This document shows positions 9,044-59,991 of a stretch of 64,000 nucleotides of DNA, piece after piece. Under the pieces are notes generated by a model. The model was given only the letters and a program-made list of their open reading frames with translations, was not told where the DNA came from and made no database searches. How positions within the stretch are numbered: the first letter of the stretch is position 1; each line of letters opens with the position of its first letter. The stretch comes from a virus (Duplodnaviria > Heunggongvirae > Uroviricota > Caudoviricetes): positions 17,985-81,984 of the IMG/VR virus record IMGVR_UViG_3300020576_002769. One strand, given 5' to 3'. A program made the position numbers and the translations under genes.

Positions 9044-9058
9044 AATAATAAATACCCG

Positions 9059-9370
9059 TTAGGACTGAATATACTTAATATCAACACCAAAATAGGTTTC
9101 AAACCAATTTTTGATTACCGATTCGGCTTGAGATTCATCCGGAAAATAAAGGGTTGCAAAATTTCGAATAAAATCATTATCAACATATAATCGTCCGTCC
9201 TCATAATCATATTCCATTAAAACTTCAGACAAATCATAATCATCCATATTTTCCGATGGATAATATATAATAATAAAATTATCAAACGAAGATACGTTAT
9301 ACCCAATGAGTTTATTCAGATAATTTATCTGCAAGTCCAAAAGTTTATTTTCAGAAATTATAATTTTCAT
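9059..9370 (-). CDS. hypothetical protein, MKIIISEN N-terminal family
   Basis: N-terminus MKIIISENKLLDLQINYLNKLIGYNVSS. Upstream ATATTTATTGTT-ATG. Confidence 0.5.
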   Translation of the reverse strand: MKIIISENKLLDLQINYLNKLIGYNVSSFDNFIIIYYPSENMDDYDLSEVLMEYDYEDGRLYVDNDFIRNFATLYFPDESQAESVIKNWFETYFGVDIKYIQS

Positions 9371-9408
9371 AACAATAAATATCCGGACAATTCAAAACGT
9401 GGGGATAA

Positions 9409-9783
9409 TTATAATTCAATAAGTCGTAATCCTTCCAACAATCCGACTTCTAAGGCTTCTTCCCAAGAATTATATCTATAATTTTTAACAGGTATCTCAC
9501 CCATTACAGAATAAGTATAATAACCGATTTCAATGTAACCGGTAAATCTAACCGGTTGAACATACACGTCGATGTTATGAACTTCTCTCAACCATTTCTG
9601 TAATAAGGATTGGGTAGGTCTTGCAATACTATCATCACTTGAATTATTACATTTTACGGCACCTTGTTTGGAAAACTTCCAACTCGACGCCGGTTCAATC
9701 CACCATCTACCATCACAAGGAATATTAAAACCTTTTTCTTTTGCCAACTTGGCAGTTTCAAACTCAATTAATTGTTCGTTCAT
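9409..9783 (-). CDS. hypothetical protein
   Basis: ORF of 124 aa. Confidence 0.45.
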   Translation of the reverse strand: MNEQLIEFETAKLAKEKGFNIPCDGRWWIEPASSWKFSKQGAVKCNNSSDDSIARPTQSLLQKWLREVHNIDVYVQPVRFTGYIEIGYYTYSVMGEIPVKNYRYNSWEEALEVGLLEGLRLIEL

Positions 9784-9785
9784 AA

Positions 9786-10142
9786 TTAAAAATAAATCAA
9801 ATCCTTACCAATCGTTCTTTTGAATTCCAATTCAATCTCGGGAACCGGATTATCTTTATGTAAATGACCATCCTCACCGGACCACCCCATATCTCCGGAA
9901 TAATACTCAACCAATTCATTACCATCTCGACTTCTCCAATCAATAAAATGTAAATCAATTAAATTATCAGGTTCGCTTTCCCAAGCATAAGATTTTAATG
10001 ATAAAGTTTCTTCTCTAACATATTCGTTACCCTTATAAACAATCCAATCTTTATATTCAACTCTCCTTGTCGGAGTTCTTGTTACATTCATTTCCATAAT
10101 CAAGACCAAATTGTAAATAAAGCAATACCCAAAACCATACAC
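9786..10142 (-). CDS. hypothetical protein
   Basis: ORF. The true start may be an internal Met. Confidence 0.4.
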   Translation of the reverse strand: MYGFGYCFIYNLVLIMEMNVTRTPTRRVEYKDWIVYKGNEYVREETLSLKSYAWESEPDNLIDLHFIDWRSRDGNELVEYYSGDMGWSGEDGHLHKDNPVPEIELEFKRTIGKDLIYF

Positions 10143-10291
10143 AACAAAACGATTCCACTAATAATTGAAACCTTAAACCAAGTGTCCTCGCGTTTTTCAT
10201 CAAGATTAAATAAAAACCAACTTCCCGAAAATAGAAGGGCAATCACAATCATTGTTGTGAAATAAATTTTTAACCAAATCAAATTATCCAT
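10100..10291 (-). CDS. small membrane protein
   Basis: Two TM helices. ATG at 10291, downstream of the promoter at 10306-10337. Confidence 0.4.
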   Translation of the reverse strand: MDNLIWLKIYFTTMIVIALLFSGSWFLFNLDEKREDTWFKVSIISGIVLLCMVLGIALFTIWS

Positions 10292-10305
10292 ATATAAAAT
10301 TTTCC

Positions 10306-10337
10306 ACAAAGATACAACAATATTTTAATCCACCAAA
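10306..10337 (-). promoter_or_regulatory. Bacteroidota sigma-A-type promoter (TTTG-N20-TATCTTTG)
   Basis: The coding strand reads ATTTATTTGgtggattaaaatattgttgTATCTTTGtgg. The -33 part overlaps the GC-rich repeat copy 1. Confidence 0.5.
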
Positions 10338-10398
10338 TAAATCTTCAAAAAAAAGGGGCGGGGGGATTGAGAACCGACCGGAGGGAGTTCGGTCCGGG
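10327..10398. repeat. GC-rich ~70-bp element, copy 1 (direct repeat of 13058-13127)
   Basis: TAATCCACCAAATAAATCTTCAAAAAAAAGGGGCGGGGGGATTGAGAACCGACCGGAGGGAGTTCGGTCCGGG is about 85-90% identical to copy 2. It has a G-run plus a CCGGA..TCCGG stem, and on the minus-strand RNA a U8 tract follows. Confidence 0.6.
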
Positions 10399-10409
10399 AA
10401 AGAATCAAA

Positions 10410-12449
10410 TTATTTCGGGAAAAACTCATCAATGTATCCTAATTTTTTTGCCACTTTATATGCACCACTATATTTAATCCTAAACTCTGACACATTTTTA
10501 CACTCAGATGATTTTTCTTTCATTAATTCATACGACCAAATTGATTTTCTAACCGGTCTATTTTCAACAGGAAAAAGTTCATTTAATATACCATATTTTT
10601 TCGCGACTTTGTATCCACCACTATATTTTATTTCAAATTCAGACCTATTCCTACACTCAGACGATTTCTCTATTATTAATTCGTAAGTCCATTTAGATGG
10701 TTTAGGAGTTCTTATTGGTTTTATCATATGAGAACATATTTCATCAATCCATCCATTTTTAACAGCAGAACGATAAAAAGGTCTGGAATTTACGGTAAAA
10801 TCTTTTTTATAATTGTATTTTAACGCTTCTTTTCGACATTCTTCTTTATCATTATATTTTTCAAGTAATAGTTCATTTAATGTTTTTGGGAAAACAACTT
10901 TCAATAAATTATTTCTATCTAAAAATTTAAGAAGACCCGGTTTACTCTTTTGTAAATGACTAATACAGTCATAATTTTTTGCCTCTTCTAACGCATTTTC
11001 CATATTCCATTCCCCCGGCATTTTTTTAGTTTTAACTAAATCAGATATTAAGTCTTCCCACCATCCATTTTCAATCGCAATGTTTCTAACCCAACTATTC
11101 ATTTTTTTTGAATATTCTTCTCTATTCTCACATCCTTCTTTCATTTTCACAAAATAATCATAAGTATATTTTGACTTCATAGCACCTAATGAACCGGCTT
11201 TAGCCTTATTTAATAGAATGTAACCCATATCACTATATTCCTTAACCCACATCGCCTCCATTTCAGGTGCATCTTCTTCTTTTATTGGTGTAGAAGTCAG
11301 AAGTTTGAATTCAGGTATTACGTTAATTTCTTTAATTTTTTCAAAAACGGGAGATTTACCTTTTTCAGTTCCATATAAATGAGCATTTTTCCTTCTTTTA
11401 ATTTGACAAGTTAATCCAACATAAGCATATTTAGGTATTGTTGTATTAAATTCAAACACATAAATAACTCTTTCTTTAAGAGTCATCTGTCTTTTCATAT
11501 GAGCAAAACAAATTTTATCCCAACTATTTTTAAGAATAATTCTATAAGCATAATTTGAATTTTCACACATATCACTTCTTGTCTGATATTTTAATGATTC
11601 TTCAGTACATTTTTCAATAGTATCAAAATCTTCAAAAACTTTCCTAACATTACCACTTTTAGTTATGTGTTGTATATGGTCAAGTAATTCTGTCCAATTA
11701 TTTTTATGAATAACATCATAAATGTTTGGGTAGTCTTTATAGAATTCAGAATGTACGGTATAGTTTTTAGTAATTTCTTTACATTTATCATAAGTCCAAT
11801 AACCATTAGGCTTAAAAATATAATCCATATGACTAACACAAGACAACCAAAATTCTTTATCTTCATCACTCGATGATAATTTCCTATAAGTTCTTGCGGT
11901 ATTGAATACTGAGCGGTCGTTTATTTCCCAATCTCTTTGATTATTATATTTAAGTGCAGATTCTAATATTTCTTCTTTGGTATATTGTTTAACAATTTTA
12001 GATTTACCCATATGTTTAACCGCCTCATCCATAATACCTAATCTTTTCGCAGCACCATATTGTCCGGGTGAATTAATTCTAAAATCATTTCTAGTTTTAT
12101 ACTTCAAAGACTCAGTTAACACTTCTTCATTAGTATATGGTTCCGATACTTGTCTTATTAAATGTTTTGTCAATTCATCCCACCAACCATCACGTTTAAT
12201 TGCGTTGATAACACTTGTCCCTTGTAAATCATTAAAATATTTGAACTTTAAGACCTCCTCTTTACATTTTTCATATGTCCATTTTGGATTTTTAGGAGAA
12301 TGTGGTGTCTCCCAATGAGATAACAAATCAAACCATCCTTTACTTCTTATCTTCATAATAATTGAAGGGTCGGTTTGATTTAATTCCGTATAACTGTTGT
12401 ATTTAGAAACCTCTTCTTGACATTTTTCATATGTTAAACTTCTTCTCAT
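10410..12449 (-). CDS. large GIY-YIG-type endonuclease with ~10 degenerate ~40-aa flanking repeats
   Basis: The core is ERVIYVFEF..KYAYVGLTCQIKRRKNAH. The repeats have the form W.YEKCKEE..KY....F.....Y..A.K.GW.DE...HM. DNA-level repeats are visible at 10420-10700. Confidence 0.65.
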   Translation of the reverse strand: MRRSLTYEKCQEEVSKYNSYTELNQTDPSIIMKIRSKGWFDLLSHWETPHSPKNPKWTYEKCKEEVLKFKYFNDLQGTSVINAIKRDGWWDELTKHLIRQVSEPYTNEEVLTESLKYKTRNDFRINSPGQYGAAKRLGIMDEAVKHMGKSKIVKQYTKEEILESALKYNNQRDWEINDRSVFNTARTYRKLSSSDEDKEFWLSCVSHMDYIFKPNGYWTYDKCKEITKNYTVHSEFYKDYPNIYDVIHKNNWTELLDHIQHITKSGNVRKVFEDFDTIEKCTEESLKYQTRSDMCENSNYAYRIILKNSWDKICFAHMKRQMTLKERVIYVFEFNTTIPKYAYVGLTCQIKRRKNAHLYGTEKGKSPVFEKIKEINVIPEFKLLTSTPIKEEDAPEMEAMWVKEYSDMGYILLNKAKAGSLGAMKSKYTYDYFVKMKEGCENREEYSKKMNSWVRNIAIENGWWEDLISDLVKTKKMPGEWNMENALEEAKNYDCISHLQKSKPGLLKFLDRNNLLKVVFPKTLNELLLEKYNDKEECRKEALKYNYKKDFTVNSRPFYRSAVKNGWIDEICSHMIKPIRTPKPSKWTYELIIEKSSECRNRSEFEIKYSGGYKVAKKYGILNELFPVENRPVRKSIWSYELMKEKSSECKNVSEFRIKYSGAYKVAKKLGYIDEFFPK

Positions 12450-12457
12450 ATAATTTA

Positions 12458-13012
12458 TTAAAAAATATTTGGTATTGAATAAACTAAATCACAAGGCTCT
12501 CCCTTAATTCTTAATTCATAATTAACAACAAATTCATCATAAGACATATTTTTTAATCGGATTAATTTGTCATAATACTTTTTGTAATAGTTTGGTGTTT
12601 TTAATTCATCAAGATATATAAGTGTTGAATTAATTCGTGATTGATGTGATGAAAACAATCCTAATAAATTATCACTTTTTCTAAATGACCTTGGACTATT
12701 ATATCTTGTTGGTATATTAACCAATAATGAGAATTCAATTGATTTAGCCAAACGTTTATTATTAACTATAATACATTTAGCAAAATCCCAATTTTTTACT
12801 TTTGAGGTTTCTGGGTATGAATGAGATTTTAATCTTTGAATTAAATCACCACTATATCCGATATACACAATATCATCACCCGACATAAGCCAATAAACAC
12901 CAATGTATTTACCGGAACGTTTATATATAATTCTGCCACTATCATCACGTTTAATTTTGTTAACAATTAATTGTTCCTCTTTTAAGTGTTTACGAATAAT
13001 ATCCAATATCAT
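12458..13012 (-). CDS. GIY-YIG homing endonuclease
   Basis: KYIGVYWLMSGDDIVYIGYSGDLIQRLKSH. Confidence 0.8.
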   Translation of the reverse strand: MILDIIRKHLKEEQLIVNKIKRDDSGRIIYKRSGKYIGVYWLMSGDDIVYIGYSGDLIQRLKSHSYPETSKVKNWDFAKCIIVNNKRLAKSIEFSLLVNIPTRYNSPRSFRKSDNLLGLFSSHQSRINSTLIYLDELKTPNYYKKYYDKLIRLKNMSYDEFVVNYELRIKGEPCDLVYSIPNIF

Positions 13013-13037
13013 ATTATTAGTTTTTTAATGATTGGTG

Positions 13038-13069
13038 CAAAGATAAGTATATTTTTTTAATCCACCAAA
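13038..13069 (-). promoter_or_regulatory. Bacteroidota sigma-A-type promoter for 12458-13012
   Basis: The coding strand reads TTATTTGgtggattaaaaaaatatactTATCTTTGcacc. The -33 region lies in repeat copy 2. Confidence 0.5.
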
Positions 13070-13127
13070 TAAATCATCAAAAAAAGGGGGCGGGGGGATT
13101 GGACAACGACCGGAGGGAGTCCGGTTT
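13058..13127. repeat. GC-rich ~70-bp element, copy 2
   Basis: TAATCCACCAAATAAATCATCAAAAAAAGGGGGCGGGGGGATTGGACAACGACCGGAGGGAGTCCGGTTT. Confidence 0.6.
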
Positions 13128-13659
13128 ATGTGAGACATCGATTGATTCCCCCAATATAATTCATTATAATTCCCATATGAATTTATATGAACAATACGAA
13201 AACTCAAAAATCGGGGGTGAAAACGATAAGATAAAAACAATCAATGATATCATAACCCAATACCCAAAAATAATCGACTACTTATATAACCGAATAGACA
13301 CCTGTTTCGGAAAACATATTGTATATGTTGTTCATATGAGGGTAGATAATATTGATATGATTAAAATAGGTTACACCAAAAATTCTGTAACCGGAAGATT
13401 CTCAGAAAAAAGATGGACAGACCATCATAAAATAGATATTGTGGAAATATTAAGAGAAAACACCCTTCAAGCAAAAGGAGCGGTGGATTTCGAAAAAGAA
13501 TTAAAATCACAATGTTCTCAATATACTATTAATTCAAACCTAAAACTCCCGGGAAAAAATGAATTTATGGATTTTAATAATAAAAATAACATACTATCAA
13601 AATACGACAACCTATTTCCAATTTACGAATCCATTATAGGATTAAAATCCCCCAACTAA
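13099..13659 (+). CDS. GIY-YIG-like (T5orf172-type) domain protein
   Basis: HIVYVVHMRVDNIDMIKIGYTKNSVTGRFSEKR. The true start may be the internal Met near 13177. Confidence 0.5.
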   Translation: MDNDRRESGLCETSIDSPNIIHYNSHMNLYEQYENSKIGGENDKIKTINDIITQYPKIIDYLYNRIDTCFGKHIVYVVHMRVDNIDMIKIGYTKNSVTGRFSEKRWTDHHKIDIVEILRENTLQAKGAVDFEKELKSQCSQYTINSNLKLPGKNEFMDFNNKNNILSKYDNLFPIYESIIGLKSPN

Positions 13660-13673
13660 CAAAAGAGGGAGAA

Positions 13674-14288
13674 TCAATCAAATCGAATTATTCTATATTC
13701 CTCAGTATTGGGATAAAATTCAACATTCTCATCATACTCCTCTTGTGATAAACTACGACACTTATCCAAAATATCCTTAATACCTCCATTACAAATGGTA
13801 TATCCTCGTTGAACATATTTCTGAACTCTCCTTAATGAATCAAATACATACAAAGGTTCCAAATGATTTATAACAATCCTCTTATGATGAACATCCAATA
13901 ATCCCGATGGACTACATAACACCTTCTCACCATCATACATAAACTGACATACCGTAAAATCAAACGAATCCAAAATACTCTCAAAAGTTTCATACTCCCG
14001 ATATATAATCTGAACCTTAATCTTCCCCTTCTTATAGGTCCTCAAGTTATCGTTGAAATAAACCAACCGATACCCCTTACCCTTAGTCAAATTCAAATTA
14101 ACAAATTCATCCAAGTCAGACTTACTCAATCCAAAGATATCAATATCATTGTACTTCTCACCAAATAAACTATCCCGAACACTCCCACCGGCAATAACAA
14201 CATTCAACTTCTTACCATCAACATCCTCAAACTTGAAGTCAGGTAGTTTAACCAACAACCCCTCCTTAGGTAATTCACAATATTTCAT
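13674..14288 (-). CDS. minimal class-II (Pol-beta superfamily) nucleotidyltransferase, CCA/poly(A)-polymerase head-like
   Basis: VVIAGGSVRDSLFGEKYNDIDIFG (GGxVRD..D.D) plus a degenerate RRDFTxNA-like SFDFTVCQF. Confidence 0.55.
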   Translation of the reverse strand: MKYCELPKEGLLVKLPDFKFEDVDGKKLNVVIAGGSVRDSLFGEKYNDIDIFGLSKSDLDEFVNLNLTKGKGYRLVYFNDNLRTYKKGKIKVQIIYREYETFESILDSFDFTVCQFMYDGEKVLCSPSGLLDVHHKRIVINHLEPLYVFDSLRRVQKYVQRGYTICNGGIKDILDKCRSLSQEEYDENVEFYPNTEEYRIIRFD

Positions 14289-14290
14289 AA

Positions 14291-14596
14291 TTAGAATTTT
14301 AAATCTGAAACATAAGTCTCTAACGATACCAATGGAATTATCTCTTTCATCCTATCAAGATTTCCAATACCATCAACAGCATCCCATCCATATCTTTCCC
14401 CCGCATTGAATGACTTTACAATCTCAGGAATAAGTGGAGTTGTTTGTGTTAAAATTTCTTTTAACCCTTCTAACACCCCCAAACATTTATGAGCATCAAT
14501 CATATTATTTTCCTTTTGATAAAACCTAACATCTTTCTCTAATGTCTCAATTCTTCCCTCAATAAACTCTCGGTCTATAATAACGTATTTATCCAT
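14291..14596 (-). CDS. hypothetical protein
   Basis: ORF of 101 aa. A TATCTTTG -7 box lies upstream (plus-strand ccacaaagata at about 14612-14622). Confidence 0.4.
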   Translation of the reverse strand: MDKYVIIDREFIEGRIETLEKDVRFYQKENNMIDAHKCLGVLEGLKEILTQTTPLIPEIVKSFNAGERYGWDAVDGIGNLDRMKEIIPLVSLETYVSDLKF

Positions 14597-14682
14597 ATCT
14601 TTTTATTTAGACCACAAAGATATAACAACCCCCCGGATTTACCAAATTTTTTTCCAAAAATTTTTTTTTGAGATTTGACCTT

Positions 14683-14955
14683 TTATTTAGATGGGGGGTC
14701 AATACCCGGAGGTAATCCATACGGATAATTATCATCATAATAATAACCCTGTTCCTTAATCCATTTATGAGCCAATCTTGGAGAATCAAATAACTTTACA
14801 TTATCCCCCTTCTTAATCGCCCATATTACATCACCACCATAATAATAATTCTCATTTATCACAATAACATAATACTCCTGACCCTCATCAATAATATCAC
14901 CAACATTATCAAGATAATAACCACGACTCCTAAAAACACAAAATCTTTTTTCCAT
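14683..14955 (-). CDS. hypothetical protein
   Basis: ORF of 90 aa. The overlapping track ORF 14607-14789 is treated as spurious. Confidence 0.4.
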   Translation of the reverse strand: MEKRFCVFRSRGYYLDNVGDIIDEGQEYYVIVINENYYYGGDVIWAIKKGDNVKLFDSPRLAHKWIKEQGYYYDDNYPYGLPPGIDPPSK

Positions 14956-14993
14956 AATTTATATTTTATAAAAAAATAAACAATTTTCCATAA

Positions 14994-15028
14994 ATAAAAA
15001 ACCCCACTTAATCAAATGTGGGGATAGG
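14994..15028 (-). terminator. rho-independent terminator after the HNH gene
   Basis: On the minus RNA: CCCCAC-AUUUGAUUAA-GUGGGG followed by UUUUUU. Confidence 0.6.
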
Positions 15029-16093
15029 TTTAACTTTTATATCAACATTATCTTTATAATCAATTGATATCTCATAATACGGAAACTTCTCTTTAAGGTA
15101 ACTCTTAAATGTCATTTGATTACCCTTCTTCAAATTGTCCTCAGCCCATAAAGGTTGAAAATTTGTATAATGACATAACTTCTTGATTTCTTCTAAAGTC
15201 TTAGCAGACGATATTGGAATGATGTGGTCAATATGCCAACCATAAAACCCATAGTTCTCCCAAGACATACCTTCCAAAAAATTAATCTCCAAATATTTTC
15301 TGAACTCCTCAGGTGTACATCCAATCATCTTAAACATTGGACTATCCTTTTTAGCCCCAATCTGTTTTATATATTGTTTAGTTCTATTACGAAGGTTACA
15401 TATCGCACGATAAAAAGGGTCTTTCTGTTTTCTTGATTTATGATACTCTTTTTTCTTAGTTGGATTATTTTCACGATATATCTTTCTACTCACCTTAATC
15501 TTATTCGTGTTGTTTTCACGATATTTTTTCTTAGTATTCTTAACCTTAGTTGGATGCTCAAGTCTATAAATCCTAATCCTTTCTTTTTCACATTCCCCAC
15601 ACTTTGTAACAGAACCTTTATAAAATTCAGATATAGGTTTGGTTAATCCACATTTATTACAAGTACTTTCAATCAAACTCTCCTGAATCATATCAATCTT
15701 TTCCTTACGAGTTAATTTAACTTTTACTGAATTGATTAATATAAAAGGTTTATTTGGATAATACCATATAATCTTAGAATATTTATCATTAATCTTTTTA
15801 GTCTTAGAATATTTATCATTAATCTTTTTAGTCTTAGAATATTTATTATTAATCTTTTTAGTCTTAAGAATATTTTTATCATATGTTTTTTCAGTTTTTC
15901 CTACCTTATTCTTCTCTCTATATCTCCTCTTAGATTCTTTTACCTTATCCGGATTATTCTTACGATATCTTTTTTTATCAATATTACAACACTCCCGACA
16001 TTGATAATGCAAACCATCAGAAGAACTCTTACGATTATTGAATTCTGACAATCCCTTCTCAATACCACATTTTGAACATCTCTTTAATTCCAT
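15008..16093 (-). CDS. HNH homing endonuclease with N-terminal zinc ribbons and an internal K-rich tandem repeat
   Basis: C-terminal WHIDHIIPISSAKTLEEIKKLCHYTNFQPLWAEDNLKKGN. N-terminal CSKCG..C..C motifs. It is a paralog of 59272-59991. Confidence 0.75.
   Translation of the reverse strand: MELKRCSKCGIEKGLSEFNNRKSSSDGLHYQCRECCNIDKKRYRKNNPDKVKESKRRYREKNKVGKTEKTYDKNILKTKKINNKYSKTKKINDKYSKTKKINDKYSKIIWYYPNKPFILINSVKVKLTRKEKIDMIQESLIESTCNKCGLTKPISEFYKGSVTKCGECEKERIRIYRLEHPTKVKNTKKKYRENNTNKIKVSRKIYRENNPTKKKEYHKSRKQKDPFYRAICNLRNRTKQYIKQIGAKKDSPMFKMIGCTPEEFRKYLEINFLEGMSWENYGFYGWHIDHIIPISSAKTLEEIKKLCHYTNFQPLWAEDNLKKGNQMTFKSYLKEKFPYYEISIDYKDNVDIKVKPIPTFD
15773..15872 (-). repeat. 33-bp in-frame tandem repeat (about 3 copies) inside the HNH gene
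   Basis: CTTAGAATATTTATCATTAATCTTTTTAGT repeated three times. It encodes the KTKKIN[ND]KYSK repeats. Confidence 0.7.
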
Positions 16094-16126
16094 AAAGGCA
16101 AAAATAATAAATTATTTATTTTTGTA

Positions 16127-16150
16127 AATTTTTTCCAGAATTTTTTTTAC
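16127..16150. repeat. direct repeat TTTTTTCCAGAATTTTTTT, copy A
   Basis: Same ~19-mer recurs at 16244-16268. A variant TTTTTTTCCAAAAATTTTTTTTT occurs at about 14648-14670. Confidence 0.4.
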
Positions 16151-16243
16151 TATTTGAGTAATTACCAACACTAAAGAATATTCCCCCAAATAACTTTAGT
16201 AATTCCCCACATATATAATAACCGGATACTAATTAACCGGGGG

Positions 16244-16268
16244 ATTTTTCCCCCAATTTTTTTCCAGA
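16244..16268. repeat. direct repeat TTTTTTCCAGAATTTTTTT, copy B
   Basis: See copy A. Confidence 0.4.
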
Positions 16269-16350
16269 ATTTTTTTAAGAATACTTCGTCTACGGGATTA
16301 TACCCCTATTTTGGGTATAAAAGGGGGGAGGAAGGGAGGTAGGATACGTC

Positions 16351-16417
16351 CCCCACCCATAGGGGAGCCCCCCTATGGGGTCTAATGGGGGTGGGATATA
16401 AATAACCCCCCATTAGG
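16351..16417. other. GC-rich nested-palindrome structure
   Basis: CCCATAGGGG-AGC-CCCCTATGGG is a 10-bp perfect stem. CTAATGGGGG ... CCCCCCATTAG is a second stem enclosing GGGATATAAATAA. Confidence 0.5.
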
Positions 16418-16862
16418 TGGAGGGTTTATAATCGACAATGAAGTTATTGATTTTAAACGATGATTCCATTATGGCTTGGTCACCTGTGAATTGACTAACG
16501 AAGAGATAAGTCCTTTGATATTCTCGGGGGATTTGTTTATAGAAGAACTCGCACCACTTCTCCATATCTTTCTTTGTGTTGTATGGTACCTTCCAACCTA
16601 TTGGTGATGTTAGGTACGCATCCAATGAGTAAGCAGTACTACCGATATACTCAGGGTCTCTCTCTATGAATCTTTGTTTGGCGTATGGTCTTATTGGTAC
16701 CCCGAAGTAATCAGATACCTTATCATAATCAACAATGATATCGATGAATGAGACTCTATACTCATCAAAGTTACGGGAAGGTTTCCATCCTATTACGAAG
16801 TTATATTTCCTCTTTAATGATTTGACTGTCATATCAAATCCTTTTTTTACATTATTATCCAT
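16413..16862 (-). CDS. hypothetical protein (GC-richer than the surroundings)
   Basis: ORF of 149 aa. Upstream ATATTTATTGTT-ATG. Confidence 0.4.
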   Translation of the reverse strand: MDNNVKKGFDMTVKSLKRKYNFVIGWKPSRNFDEYRVSFIDIIVDYDKVSDYFGVPIRPYAKQRFIERDPEYIGSTAYSLDAYLTSPIGWKVPYNTKKDMEKWCEFFYKQIPREYQRTYLFVSQFTGDQAIMESSFKINNFIVDYKPST

Positions 16863-17065
16863 AACAATAAATATTCTTATCTTTTTATTTGGCCAATTGA
16901 AATATTCTTTATACCTTTGTGTCGATAGACCGACTCGTTAGAGGAGTAGGACATTACCGGGGGAACCTTCATCGACAGATGAAGAACCAATCCGGATGGG
17001 GGCGTACCTTTTTAATCGGGGGTGGAAGAGTAGACGGATGGGTGCTCCATATTTTTATATATAAA

Positions 17066-17482: not shown

Positions 17483-17582
17483 AGTATTTAATGTTTTATC
17501 AATATAAATATCTATTCTTTGATAAAAACATAATCTAAACCGGACATTAATTTACAAATCAATAATTAAAACCGGAGATTTT

Positions 17583-17613
17583 TTTGTGAATTCCATAATT
17601 TGTATTATCTTTG
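17583..17613 (+). promoter_or_regulatory. Bacteroidota sigma-A-type promoter (TTTG-N19-TATCTTTG)
   Basis: TTTGtgaattccataatttgtatTATCTTTGtggg, followed 19 nt later by the ATG at 17633. Confidence 0.45.
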
Positions 17614-17632
17614 TGGGCTAAAATAGATTTGT

Positions 17633-17776
17633 ATGATTGTATTAGTTATTCTTGCTGTCTTGGTGATAGGGATGTTCCTTATTGATATACACGTAATCCC
17701 CCACCTTTCTTCGGATAATAAGTTCCGGAAGTGGTTTAAGACTTATCTTATTGATGATGACCCCGACCACGAATAA
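17633..17776 (+). CDS. small hydrophobic protein (47 aa)
   Basis: MIVLVILAVLVIGMFLIDIHV... Below the track threshold. It has its own promoter and overlaps the 3' end of 17748-18131. Confidence 0.35.
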   Translation: MIVLVILAVLVIGMFLIDIHVIPHLSSDNKFRKWFKTYLIDDDPDHE

Positions 17777-18131
17777 ACATCTCCACCTGATGTAGGGAAT
17801 GTTCCCTTATCTCCATATTGACCTTATTTAAATCCCCCTCGTTAAGTGGGGATTTTTTGTTTATCTCATCTATCACCCCGGACATATCACAATGGGTCAT
17901 AATTAATACCTCCTGTTTTATTCTGTTCCCCACTCTTGTTAGGACATAATGACAGGTTCCCATTCCATAATCTACCACATAGGTTTCTCCGGATTGTATA
18001 ACTGAAGGTTTTTCGTTGTTTAGGTACCCCGTCGGAAACGTGTTTTCGTACATATAATTTCTTTTATTATAAGTATATAAAATTGGGTTCTCGATGTAAA
18101 GAGGGGGAATTGTCTGTGTCAGATTTTCCAT
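17748..18131 (-). CDS. hypothetical protein
   Basis: ORF of 127 aa. A palindrome lies immediately upstream of its ATG. Confidence 0.4.
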   Translation of the reverse strand: MENLTQTIPPLYIENPILYTYNKRNYMYENTFPTGYLNNEKPSVIQSGETYVVDYGMGTCHYVLTRVGNRIKQEVLIMTHCDMSGVIDEINKKSPLNEGDLNKVNMEIREHSLHQVEMFIRGRGHHQ

Positions 18132-18134
18132 TTT

Positions 18135-18149
18135 CTGACAAAATGTCAG
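18135..18149. promoter_or_regulatory. operator-like perfect palindrome CTGACA-AAA-TGTCAG
   Basis: Located 3-17 nt upstream of the ATG of 17748-18131. Confidence 0.35.
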
Positions 18150-18692
18150 TCTGATTCATAATGGGGATAATCCCTTTCCCCACTTTTAACCCCCACCGGT
18201 AATACATTCCTTACCACTTTTTACCACCCATTATGGTCGTGCCGATAGTGTGAAGACCAATTTTTTCCCCCTGAGAGTATCAGGAAGACCAATTATTTTG
18301 ATAGTAGTGTTTCCCAGTAAAAAATGTTTATTATGAATGGTAACGCGGTGGAACACGTAGTGTGTTAGAGAAGTATCTTCAACGACCCCGAATAGGGGAT
18401 AAATTTAACCACTAATGGACGATTTAATGATTTATAATATGGGACACCATACAGACACAAAACACCATTAAAAGTATCGATAGACCGACCGAAGGAAGTT
18501 ATCATTTGTATCCGGATTGTGAGTTTTAAACTGACTACACTGATACAAAACATAACTTACCATAACAAGAACTCATCCGGATTATATTCATTTACATATA
18601 ATTAACCACTTGTGGTTCCCTTTATATGTATTTGCGTATAATCCACCATAACAATAATGTTAGTGTCCCTTAATCGTCCCCTTCTTTAGAGG

Positions 18693-18709
18693 GGGGAACT
18701 TCGTTCCCC
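18693..18709. other. perfect GC hairpin GGGGAAC-TTC-GTTCCCC
   Basis: 7-bp stem with a 3-nt loop, in a 730-bp noncoding stretch. Confidence 0.4.
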
Positions 18710-18728
18710 GTCTTCAAATGGGGGGAAA

Positions 18729-59291: not shown

Positions 59292-59991
59292 TAAGTGTAA
59301 AGAAGAAAAAGAGATTTGTGAATTTGGTGTAAATAAATCAAACAAAGATAAACTTCAAAGTATCTGTAAATGTTGCGATAAATTAAAATCAAAAGAATAC
59401 AGAGAAAAGAATAGAGAAAAATACTTGTTATCCCAAAAAAAATCTTATTATGAAAATAAAGAAAAACGGTCTATATCTAGTAAACAATATTATAAAGATA
59501 ATAGGGATAATATTATTAATAGAAATAAAAAATATTATCGTAATAATATAGACAAATATAAAATTACAAAAAAAGAATGGCACGAAAAAAATAAAGAAAA
59601 AGTTTTAAAAAAATCAAAAGAATATAGTCAAAAAAATAGGAAATTATTATCAGAATACGAAAAAAATAGACGACATACTGACCCATTATTTAGAACCGTA
59701 AGATATGTCAGAAATAGAATTAACCAATACCTAAAATCTAAAAATTTTAAGAAAAACAGTCAATCATTTGAACTCGTTGGTTGTTCTCCTGAAATACTTA
59801 AAAACCATATTGAAAATCAATTCACCGAAGGAATGACTTGGGAATTAATGGGTAGATACATTCATATAGACCACATAATACCATTATCATCCGCAAAAAC
59901 CGAGGATGAAGTAAAAAAATTATGTCATTATACTAATCTACAACCTTTATGGGCTAAAGATAATTTAATAAAATCAAATAAAATAGAATAA
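59272..59991 (+). CDS. HNH homing endonuclease (paralog of 15008-16093)
   Basis: N-terminal CNKCK..C..C zinc ribbon. C-terminal YIHIDHIIPLSSAKTEDEVKKLCHYTNLQPLWAKDNLIKSN. Confidence 0.75.
   Translation: METKICNKCKEEKEICEFGVNKSNKDKLQSICKCCDKLKSKEYREKNREKYLLSQKKSYYENKEKRSISSKQYYKDNRDNIINRNKKYYRNNIDKYKITKKEWHEKNKEKVLKKSKEYSQKNRKLLSEYEKNRRHTDPLFRTVRYVRNRINQYLKSKNFKKNSQSFELVGCSPEILKNHIENQFTEGMTWELMGRYIHIDHIIPLSSAKTEDEVKKLCHYTNLQPLWAKDNLIKSNKIE

Follow-up and report, generated by a model that had tools for sequence, protein, structure and literature searches.

In the 64,000-nt stretch of phage DNA analyzed in this work (the window), two GC-rich direct repeats have been found that are probably conserved modules, each composed of a promoter and a DNA hairpin, acting as crossover points where a 2.7-kb block of two genes comes or goes. 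The repeats (10323-10393 and 13055-13125) are 71 nt long and 90% identical in a repeat search, so the originally described pair of about 70 bp is real; the longest exact identity between them is 21 nt. Their core GGGGCGGGGGGATTG is present at only two sites in 64 kb, one per copy, and its GC content (0.73 and 0.69 versus 0.306 for the window) agrees with the description of GC-rich elements in an AT-rich genome. Each copy consists of an AT-rich half, which contains the -33 region of a promoter, and a GC-rich half, which contains the core of a larger family. On the plus strand, copy 1 carries an A8 run (10347-10354), a double G tract GGGGCGGGGGG (10355-10365) and the mini-hairpin CGA-CC-GGA-GG-GAG (10375-10387), here on the template strand for the flanking genes. 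The corresponding elements of copy 2 are an A7 run (13079-13085), the double G tract GGGGGCGGGGGG (13086-13097) and the same mini-hairpin (13107-13119), also on the plus strand. Between the copies lie the two predicted open reading frames, both on the minus strand and exactly where they had been placed (10410-12449, 679 aa; 12458-13012, 184 aa).

The host-type promoter proposed to overlap each repeat has also been recovered. Both copies cover the -33 TTTG of the motif TTTG-N19/20-TAnnTTTG, the -33/-7 consensus used here being taken from PMC6847099. The copy-1 promoter (10307-10337, minus strand) has the form TTTG-N19-TAnnTTTG, with the -33 TTTG at 10334-10337 and the -7 box TATCTTTG at 10307-10314, 15 nt before an ATG. 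The motif match at copy 2 (13038-13069, minus strand) has its -33 TTTG at 13066-13069 and its -7 box at 13038-13045. As predicted from the motif, the copy-1 promoter would drive the gene of a small membrane protein of 63 aa (10100-10291, minus strand; identified as an open reading frame with its translation), and the copy-2 promoter would drive the 184-aa and 679-aa genes. About 15 Bacteroidota-type -33/-7 promoters are present across the window, and these sister promoters normally have a hairpin+U terminator just before them.

The block enclosed by the repeats is an indel that they bound, as had been suspected: in L095, a metagenome contig 96-98% identical to the window, a single junction connects the left flank of copy 1 with the right flank of copy 2. 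L095 conserves the 63-aa gene, lacks both GIY-YIG-like genes, carries an additional 96-aa gene and has one hybrid copy of the repeat, copy-1-like to the left of the A run and G tract and copy-2-like to the right of them, with the crossover zone in the A run/G tract region itself (copy-1 10347-10365). In the alignment, the unit missing from the single-copy allele is 2,732 bp (10370-13101) and comprises one repeat equivalent and both cargo genes. In a second contig, L096, the same module stands between unrelated genes, with no nuclease gene in its 1.5 kb. The single-copy allele is documented by two short metagenome contigs, of 1.1 and 1.5 kb. A chimeric origin of the L095 junction seems unlikely, because the crossover falls outside the 21-nt identity and the A-run lengths differ from those of the window. 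We infer that the L095 indel would have been caused by recombination at the repeats, as either a gain or a loss and by either a homologous or a site-specific route.

Further relatives show the same region in other states. In L005/L089 (95.6% relative) a gene-conversion patch from copy 2 to copy 1 is visible, similarity to the window ends exactly at the -7 box of copy 1, and the 63-aa membrane-protein gene is swapped for a TnpB gene. Two copies bracket a formylglutamate amidohydrolase gene in L004/L087. At one orthologous junction the 44-nt GC module is cleanly present or absent without any cargo. In a 208-kb contig the bracket around the homologue of the 679-aa protein is conserved and the 184-aa gene is missing. 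Indels not bounded by the element have been found in the same region as well, namely those of the 184-aa gene (208-kb contig), of an HNH gene (L005) and of the 96-aa gene (L095), and no cassette differences were seen between near-identical contig pairs. The suggestion of a recombination hotspot used for cassette exchange is supported by the repeat-bounded indel of L095, the conversion patch of L005/L089 and the module in L096.

A family of 60 copies, spread over 37 viral contigs, includes the GC-rich half, and the core conserved in this family consists of an A/T run, a pair of G tracts and a GNA-triloop mini-hairpin that covaries. The A run and double G tract are kept in all 45 distinct copies; the G tracts shrink to 3+3 in a divergent subfamily. 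The mini-hairpin is likewise present in 45/45 copies, always with a GAA or GGA loop and CGA..GAG flanks; 100% of the cells are paired and 10 have changes on both sides, which none of 500 shuffles reached. The stem in the main family has two Watson-Crick pairs, a closing C-G and possible tandem G.A pairs, and stems of 5-6 bp occur only in outliers (L030 and an upstream partial copy in L009). Flanks of the CGA..GAG type can form sheared G.A pairs. Its carriers belong to a clade of uncultivated, AT-rich phages whose contigs reach 322 kb, and genomes of 150-320 kb have two or three co-oriented copies within a single stretch of 1.5-4.3 kb; such clustering is seen in all nine multi-copy contigs above 150 kb (rough chance probability 1.6e-19). 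The hairpin side is found -7 to +50 nt beyond a stop codon of the same orientation in 29 of 33 cases, and in 24 of 29 the next gene in that orientation starts 20-60 nt past the U run; five copies sit in divergent intergenic regions, where no upstream gene is co-oriented. The element is tightly coupled to start modules downstream: in 22 of 43 copies an RTATTTAT box has its first base 16-21 nt past the C run, and in 10 of 43 a host-type promoter follows. Searches of Rfam covariance models gave no match to the element at gathering or E-value thresholds. Among deposited phages no near relatives of the window were found by DNA and protein matches were only distant, no relation to T4-type phages was detected, and relatives sought through the 124-aa gene at 9409-9783 were not found.

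The genes flanking the element fall into at least 26 unrelated families upstream and at least 22 downstream, and only 3 of 54 distinct flanking proteins have a nuclease-type Pfam domain, two of the three being the window's own genes again in L005. The element thus stands, as in the refuting case set out originally, at unrelated sites with no specific endonuclease link, and the idea of a boundary or scar specific to the insertion of an endonuclease cassette has to be abandoned: the module is conserved and its cargo varied, nuclease genes being one cargo among many.

According to the explanation we favor, the portable unit would be a module of about 110-125 bp comprising, in gene direction, the GNA-triloop mini-hairpin, the double G tract 10-12 nt further on, the T run and the promoter, the last made of Bacteroidota-type -33/-7 motifs and a short leader. 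Its GC-rich half would be a conserved, strand-specific cis element, confined in each genome to a single local group of two or three copies, all in one orientation and set apart by small, variable accessory genes. Because they are direct repeats, the copies could be sites of crossover. A cassette between them would be removed or added when one copy recombines with another or when a circle bearing a single copy integrates, and the same events may place the module before new genes. The cassette of the window would be an operon of the 184-aa and 679-aa GIY-YIG-like genes under the copy-2 promoter, and the copy-1 promoter would begin the next transcription unit. As to the native role of the GC core, our best guess is a template-strand, DNA-level hairpin signal that marks the start of a transcription unit.

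Such a signal, a GRA-triloop mini-hairpin followed by G tracts, may perhaps be read as single-stranded DNA, with a phage enzyme dedicated to it; it would then be either a hairpin promoter in the style of N4, from which the first transcription units are launched, or a site of the attC kind at which cassettes recombine. This is a tentative proposal. N4 promoters have been described as hairpins of the template strand that carry GGA or GAA loops and occur as a cluster of three per genome (PMC4496689; PMC13037366), and in phage LUZ7 transcription starts 13-14 nt away from the centre of the hairpin (PMC9163698). Applied to the element, as a promoter of this type or a related start signal, a phage polymerase would read the hairpin with its GRA triloop, extruded on the template strand, and start 11-14 nt away through the G tract in the direction of the downstream gene, which we consider possible but clearly short of probable. 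The likeness to virion RNA polymerase promoters of N4 includes the covarying template-strand hairpin with an invariably GAA or GGA triloop, a sheared G:A pair (PMC4496689; LUZ7, PMC9163698), the conserved CGA..GAG flanks, the grouping of two or three copies in each genome and the small, early-type genes that follow. The LUZ7 start distance lands on a near-invariant ATT of the element, and the five copies in divergent regions, with no co-oriented gene upstream, would also be explained. However, the stem of 5-7 bp in N4 is replaced here by two Watson-Crick pairs with a closing C-G and G.A pairs, followed by a G tract and a T run, and the predicted transcript would have an atypical beginning, A/U and then a C run. 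Among 48 large ORFs of the genome fragments, no T7/N4-type polymerase and no virion RNA polymerase was found. The window's copies already have host-type promoters, and in the 208-kb contig a terminator and a convergent gene lie ahead of the copy-1 orthologue. A promoter of this type would be compatible with the recombination account, since it concerns the function of the core.

The nature of the cargo bears on another, rather unlikely, origin of the repeats, in which a GIY-YIG-type nuclease would have cut a genome lacking the cassette near its single element and double-strand break repair would have copied in the block with its own module, the second copy being cargo. Both genes of the block had been taken for GIY-YIG endonucleases; weak GIY-YIG-like profile matches are indeed present, but the assignments stay below threshold. 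The 184-aa protein (absent from L095 and the 208-kb contig) matches PF01541 at E=6e-4 and gives weak PDB matches to UvrC and T4 EndoII. The 679-aa protein (absent from L095) is built of repeated modules around a central domain with a GIY-YIG match at E=1.4e-3; its homologues deposited from Rhizobium phages carry a GIY-YIG nuclease annotation, and its family is multi-copy in KVP40-like phages, as selfish genes are. A third nuclease-like gene, overlooked originally, starts 50 nt to the right of copy 2, outside the bracketed block and pointing away from it (13177-13659, plus strand); it encodes a T5orf172 domain of the GIY-YIG superfamily (PF10544, E=4.7e-4), adjoins an element also in L005, L001 and L090-93, and has the element at its 5' side in four lineages. 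Together with the HNH gene at 15008-16093, present in the window and missing in L005, and the TnpB gene of relatives, these genes are crowded in a 6-kb region as homing would suggest, and the conversion patch of L005/L089 could be a co-conversion tract. Yet direct repeats are not produced by homing alone, cargo other than nucleases and at least 26 unrelated gene families adjoin the element across its family, the module of L096 has no nuclease gene in its 1.5 kb, and the consistent endonuclease linkage of a homing footprint was not seen among the flanking proteins (3 of 54 nuclease-type). A link of the element to TnpB and IS200/IS605 has been rejected separately: TnpB is the neighbor of copy 1 in L005/L089, stands at a distance of 1.5 kb from the cluster in L090-93, and is absent at every other locus.

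Site-specific exchange in the manner of integrons appears doubtful. A dedicated recombinase would bind the folded single-stranded hairpin and move cassettes as circles in a once-per-genome array, and the one cluster per genome, the co-oriented sites at ORF 3' ends, the variable cargo between them, the DNA-type hairpin of the core and the precise hybrid junction of L095 all resemble attC arrays. Against this, no integrase or other recombinase was found among the 54 flanking proteins, the R''/R' consensus (RYYYAAC/GTTRRRY) was not present on inspection of the alignments, and the sequence of the element is strongly conserved. Unlike integron cassettes, those described here bring their own promoters; the 44-nt core is present or absent by itself, without cargo, and 71-nt repeats of 90% identity suffice for phage homologous recombination. 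More generally, the flanking proteins and the 48 large ORFs of genome fragments included no recombinase, polymerase or primase that could be linked with the element.

The original prediction assigned to each repeat a minus-strand hairpin plus U8 acting as a terminator behind the preceding gene. The element is not a canonical intrinsic terminator: the C run at the U run is unpaired in 24 of 34 copies, at least four of the last six bases before the U run are paired in only 5 of 34, and the folds are no better than shuffled ones (z-scores about 0). A 5-bp hairpin, CCGRA/UYCGG, recognized by eye is 82% paired, but its covariation equals the shuffle mean. Of the proposed terminator/promoter cassette, the promoter half is supported. 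At copy 2 there is also no co-oriented gene before the repeat, because the T5orf172 gene points away. A non-canonical terminator or insulator, made of a weak hairpin, an unstructured C-rich tract and U7-10, is as doubtful as the integron-like route; it would halt or slow read-through before the next promoter, for example with Rho or a sequence-specific phage polymerase, and its copies would be alike only through their common function. It would account for the position close behind stop codons in 29 of 33 cases, for the mRNA-strand U run that always adjoins the element, for a location in the slot where the window's other promoters have hairpin+U terminators, and for the 208-kb contig, where a normal terminator stands next to the copy at a convergent gene end. 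But, in addition to the unpaired C run, a U run without an abutting stem differs from Rho-independent terminators, and ordinary terminators of the same genomes, e.g. CCCCCGC-loop-GUUGGGGG-U6, are quite unlike the element. A complete canonical terminator is often already present upstream, and the covarying hairpin favors the opposite, G-rich strand (GNA loop, G.A flanks, one T-G pair). Such a signal would not be expected to cluster, with two or three copies, within 4 kb of a genome of 200-300 kb, nor to lack a co-oriented gene upstream, as five copies do.

It is improbable that the element is a priming signal of a replication origin, like the single-strand initiation site ssiA of RSF1010 or the complementary-strand origin of phage G4. 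In favor of it, the heptamer CCGAAGG (17 of 45 copies) equals the ssiA mini-hairpin (PMC13037366), there is one cluster per genome, and one locus has a DnaG-type primase and DnaB helicase. Against it, cumulative GC skew shows no switch at 10-13 kb, the copies are kilobases apart with genes between, their close spacing to gene-start motifs is unexpected for an origin, and the primase locus is not linkable to the element family. The likeness of the CCGAAGG/CCGGAGG type, with its C-G closing pair and GNA loop, to mini-hairpin DNA d(GCGNAGC) and to ssiA (PMC13037366) is one of heptamer type; the context differs, the element being a promoter-associated intergenic module of a double-stranded-DNA phage.

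Several other identities have been rejected. The mRNA-strand TTCAAAT-CCCCC-CGCCCCC fits the T-loop, T-stem and acceptor lengths of a tRNA fragment or att site, but there are no nearby tRNA genes and no partner strand, and none of 35 genome matches to a 19-mer is a tRNA end; these matches belong to an unrelated repeat that a Candidatus Anammoxibacter MAG contains in abundance. Only in subsets of copies can the G/C run pair at long range with a C5/G5 downstream. An intramolecular G-quadruplex was rejected since conservation does not extend to a third and a fourth G tract (variants CGAGTGAAACGAG and CGAACGAAGTGAG; 3+3 in the divergent subfamily). Every reading frame is broken by indels among copies, a retroposon-like poly(A) would be at the wrong end whichever strand is considered, and the clean 44-nt indel has no terminal inverted repeats or target-site duplication of a MITE or IS-derived element.

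The closest parallel to the favored recombination of promoter-hairpin modules is offered by PeSLs (promoter-early stem-loop), the mobile regulatory cassettes of T4-type phages (Arbiol et al. 2010, PMC2839356; Comeau et al. 2014, PMC4122927). Both systems are short composites in which about 100 bp hold a structured GC element together with an early host-type promoter, as in both copies of the window, and occur in several copies in a hyperplastic or hypervariable region beside accessory ORFs that vary among close relatives. In both, motif-bounded indels with a hybrid motif at the junction (here L095) are seen, and cassette shuffling by motif recombination has been proposed. The differences are that the promoter is sigma-70 in PeSLs and Bacteroidota -33/-7 here, and that the G(n)-loop-C(n) terminator stem is replaced by a GNA-triloop mini-hairpin with a double G tract, structured on the template strand. 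Furthermore, the element has only two or three copies in one cluster per genome, and its core is conserved across very divergent genomes, with no T4-type kinship found. Our verdict is that it is a PeSL-like mobile regulatory cassette with a new kind of core, not a member of the PeSL family by descent.

The repeats provide a sequence-level example of accessory-gene cassette swapping in very large uncultivated phages, with donor, recipient and conversion intermediates all visible in public data, and they extend the PeSL idea, described until now in T4-type phages, to another host phylum and another kind of motif. In any genome of the clade, the hypervariable cluster can be located by a 45-nt signature (A run, two G tracts, CGA-xy-GRA-y'x'-GAG). 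If the core is indeed a single-stranded DNA signal, it would be the first such system in huge phages of Bacteroidota and would explain why there is exactly one small cluster of sites per genome, in its most variable region. The protein that recognizes the mini-hairpin, whether a polymerase, a primase or a recombinase, is now a well-posed target.

The presence of two direct repeats was confirmed at 10323-10393 (copy 1) and 13055-13125 (copy 2) of the window, with a length of 71 nt and an identity of 90%. The 15-mer GGGGCGGGGGGATTG is unique to the two copies within 64 kb, and a profile search of the 64-kb window found no additional copies, even degenerate ones; the copies lie 2.7 kb apart, with none across the other 61 kb. 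The GC content of their cores reaches 69-73% versus 30.6% for the window. Almost every gene in this region is encoded on the minus strand, and on that strand each copy reads from the GC-rich part (the element) through a C-rich run, U7-8, TTTG, 19-20 nt, TATCTTTG and a further ~15-25 nt to ATG. The -33/-7 promoter consensus of Bacteroidota is TTTG/TAnnTTTG (PMC6847099), and the AT-rich half of the repeat (TAATCCACCAAATAAATC) corresponds to the -33 region of such promoters, in agreement with the host-type promoter postulated at each copy.

About 15 Bacteroidota-type promoters have been found in the window, 15-30 nt 5′ of start codons; across the window (e.g. 55645, 44405, 40261, 32485, 24692 and 14646) they follow the extended consensus AAAWWTTTGGTGGNTTAAAAAWTNGTTGTATCTTTG. 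The GC element takes the terminator slot at only two of them, and ordinary hairpin plus U-run terminators abut the -33 motif of most others, so that a terminator followed by a promoter is the general arrangement in this genome. A neighbouring protein has a weak match to a T9SS sorting domain along with DUF4832/DUF4874, and these likewise point to a Bacteroidota host. A second motif, RTATTTAT, is linked to start codons in the window: 19 of its 45 occurrences are found no more than 30 nt upstream of a start (1.4 expected), 14 of these 19 in the form RTATTTAT-N4-ATG. The latter is seen window-wide (e.g. 4481, 9382, 9055, 16874, 20535 and 23514), several times directly behind a hairpin plus U terminator, and may mark the start of translation or be a second promoter type, specific to the phage, that gives near-leaderless mRNAs.

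Both minus-strand ORFs expected between the copies are present, at 10410-12449 (679 aa) and 12458-13012 (184 aa). Their assignment to the GIY-YIG nucleases is plausible, although the scores are below threshold: the 184-aa protein matches PF01541 with E=6e-4, with weak UvrC and T4 EndoII matches, and the central domain of the 679-aa protein covers the profile almost end to end with E=1.4e-3. Rhizobium phage homologues of the latter have been deposited as GIY-YIG nucleases. The 679-aa protein consists of ~50-aa repeated modules (W-x-Y-E-x-C...G-W) flanking the nuclease-like core, the direct DNA repeats in its gene include 10417-10545/10570-10698, and KVP40-like Vibrio jumbo phages encode 6-7 homologues per genome. 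A third nuclease-like gene, overlooked in the original prediction, is the T5orf172 gene (13177-13659, plus strand), directed away from copy 2. Its upstream region (window 13128-13176; L001:830-876 and L094:6950-7000 in other contigs) contains a conserved sigma-70-like motif TTGATT-N17-TATAAT (window 13142-13170) not of the Bacteroidota type, which is retained in L094 although the neighbouring element has decayed there.

The block between the repeats had been proposed to be an indel, and the relatives were compared accordingly. One of them (contig L005/L089) is 95.6% identical to window 10308-14700 and keeps both copies and both cargo genes; its similarity ends exactly at the copy-1 -7 box, beyond which L089 carries a complete TnpB gene and the window a gene for a 63-aa membrane protein. 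A central patch of ~50 nt in its copy 1 equals copy 2 between copy-1-type flanks, and outgroups indicate conversion of copy 1 by copy 2. In a 208-kb contig (adjacent pieces L019 and L001) the 679-aa gene has a homologue that is again bracketed by two elements; T5orf172 lies on the right, and the 184-aa gene is absent. L087/L088 share the genes on both sides with the window, and 1.2 kb with three other small genes and one degenerate element copy replaces window 9050-13674. In L090-L094 T5orf172 is retained amid divergent element copies and there are no GIY-YIG genes. At one orthologous junction the 44-nt GC module alone is cleanly present (L006) or absent (L028); it follows the stop codon and precedes the T run, without target-site duplication.

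The indel was tested decisively by scanning metagenome contigs for the junction predicted of a recombinant, and two contigs matched it, L095 (Ga0222712) and L096 (JACCDN01, an independent assembly). L095 contains, in order, window 9910-10301 (96.4% identity), an extra 96-aa gene, one element and window 13055-13318 (98.1%). Its element shows full identity to copy 1 as far as ATCTTC, the copy-1-specific spacer included, and to copy 2 from the G tract on, and the 2,732-bp unit carrying both cargo genes is missing. L096 has the same hybrid module between flanking genes unrelated to those of the window on both sides. A mis-assembled window-like genome is an unlikely source: the window copies share at most 21 nt of uninterrupted identity, the crossover falls outside that stretch, and the A runs are A11 and A9 where the window has A8 and A7. 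The single-copy allele is documented by two short contigs. Other indels of the region lack the element at their ends.

Several further features were noted in the neighbourhood. The extra 96-aa gene of L095 (reverse complement, 495-785) lies exactly between the module leader and the membrane-protein gene, making another gene-sized indel at the module edge. The TnpB-type RNA-guided nuclease gene (400 aa, complete at L089:2905-4107, on the same contig as L005:3-812, and at L090-L093:4197-5396) is located just downstream of the copy-1 promoter in the 95.6% relative, and four other contigs carry a copy of 85% identity at a distance of 1.5 kb from the cluster; the truncated copy matches NCBIfam IS200_TnpB with E=2e-16, and Pfam recognizes Cas12f1-like TNB and OrfB_IS605 domains. 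A free-standing HNH/endonuclease VII-like gene (15008-16093; phrog_1035, E=8e-32) is a presence/absence indel: window 14700-16256, which includes it, has no L005 counterpart, the 208-kb contig encodes it at 65% amino acid identity, and a partial paralogue lies at window 59554-59985. Long non-coding, GC-richer stretches at 16100-17060, 17500-17750 and 18130-18860, with dense G5+/C5+ runs and short palindromes (e.g. 16323-16411), are 91-97% conserved in L005 and gave nothing in Rfam. The perfect 18-bp palindrome TGTATATTATAATATACA occurs twice, 41 nt apart, at 18729-18790, just downstream of a ParB-like gene (18866-19792, minus strand), and may be a parS-like or operator site.

IMG/VR was scanned with patterns built on the G tracts and, in an independent second round, on the hairpin half. 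With a profile search added, this gave 60 copies of the element in 37 AT-rich viral contigs, the largest of 322 kb; the phage collection contains no close cultured relative. On the window plus strand the consensus is A4-10, G3-7, 1-3 nt, G3-7, (A/T)TT, 6-9 nt, CGA-xy-GRA-y'x'-GAG-T. Ten extra matches to the G-tract pattern alone were rejected as family members, as was TTCAAATCCCCCCGCCCCCTTTTCTAAAGGGGA, a chance match of a 19-mer scan that occurs at least 13 times in one Candidatus Anammoxibacter MAG (L042, L048, L049, L053, L056, L059, L060, L062, L064, L066, L067, L074 and L075), with similar forms in several other bacteria. In a divergent copy (L090:3040-3170) the 17-nt hairpin unit GACCGGACGAAGTGAGT forms a tandem array of three. 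A second hairpin, GAC-GAA-GTC, occurs in L025 and L036, and partial copies in tandem lie upstream in L009 and L007.

All copies of the element are intergenic and have a strict orientation, with the hairpin side -7 to +50 nt from the co-oriented upstream stop codon in 29 of 33 cases and the next co-oriented start 20-60 nt beyond the U run in 24 of 29. The RTATTTAT box starts 16-21 nt past the C run in 22 of 43 distinct copies, and a host-type promoter follows in 10 of 43, mostly at 17-18 nt; the coupling to downstream features is tighter than that to upstream ones. A specific link with endonucleases, as originally proposed, did not hold, since at least 26 unrelated gene families flank the element upstream and at least 22 downstream, a nuclease-type Pfam domain occurs in just 3 of 54 distinct flanking proteins, and in L004/L087 a pair of copies encloses two genes, one for a formylglutamate amidohydrolase and one for a 205-aa protein. 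This is the outcome that the original prediction had itself named as refuting an endonuclease-specific link.

Covariation was found for a compact hairpin of the G-rich strand, C-G-A-[xy]-G-R-A-[y'x']-G-A-G. Among the first 34 copies 100% of cells were paired and 10 had changes on both sides; neither value was matched in 500 shuffles, and pairing collapsed when the partner was shifted by one position. The stems of 45 distinct copies are CC/GG (35), AC/GT (6) or GT/AC (4), the loops GAA (26) or GGA (19), and 42 of the 45 have the CGA..GAG flanks; any such 7-mer appears in only 12.7% of shuffled sequences. A 5-bp hairpin visible by eye is without covariation, a tRNA origin was rejected, and Rfam gave no match to the element. 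The G-rich strand is the template strand for the flanking genes, and a structure on this strand is favoured because of the GNA loop, the G.A-capable flanks and one T-G pair. Mini-hairpins with GNA loops are DNA-specific and unusually stable, their RNA versions being much weaker (PMC13037366; PMC4496689).

All roles proposed for the core are inferences from sequence, and each has counter-examples. Ranked first, though still tentative, is a start signal of the N4 kind formed by a DNA hairpin on the template strand: N4 virion RNA polymerase uses promoters that form hairpins with a GGA or GAA loop on the template strand (PMC4496689; PMC13037366), but one copy-1 orthologue faces a terminator and a convergent gene. 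An attC-like site for site-specific recombination would be a rather improbable reading of the sequence. Equally doubtful is a non-canonical terminator or insulator. The hairpin plus U8 terminator suggested earlier is not canonical, the C run by the U run being unpaired on the mRNA strand in 24 of 34 copies; the two window copies fold no better than shuffled sequence, many loci already have a complete terminator between the upstream gene and the element, and five copies are without a co-oriented upstream gene. A priming signal is ranked last and seems more unlikely still. In RSF1010, the mini-hairpin of ssiA is made by the heptamer CCGAAGG (PMC13037366).

All nine contigs longer than 150 kb with more than one copy carry every copy inside a single stretch of 1.5-4.3 kb (e.g. 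3 copies in 3.9 kb of 318 kb or 3 in 1.6 kb of 215 kb), as seen by exact-pattern scans over whole contigs, which divergent copies elsewhere would escape; uniform placement would give this with a rough probability of ~1.6e-19 (7 distinct arrangements). The two window copies agree with the one-cluster pattern. In what it does the element resembles PeSL, the promoter-early stem-loop cassette of T4-type phages (PMC4122927). It differs from PeSL in the kind of promoter, in having a conserved core of mini-hairpin and G tracts, in the strand that is structured, in its clustering once per genome and in the host phylum. The observations are best fitted by a portable regulatory module whose copies would be the sites at which crossover adds, removes or swaps cassettes of accessory genes, with the nuclease genes as cargo in the window's lineage. 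Besides being cargo, these genes may use the conserved module as a landing site, and the crowding of nuclease-type genes around it here would then be explained.
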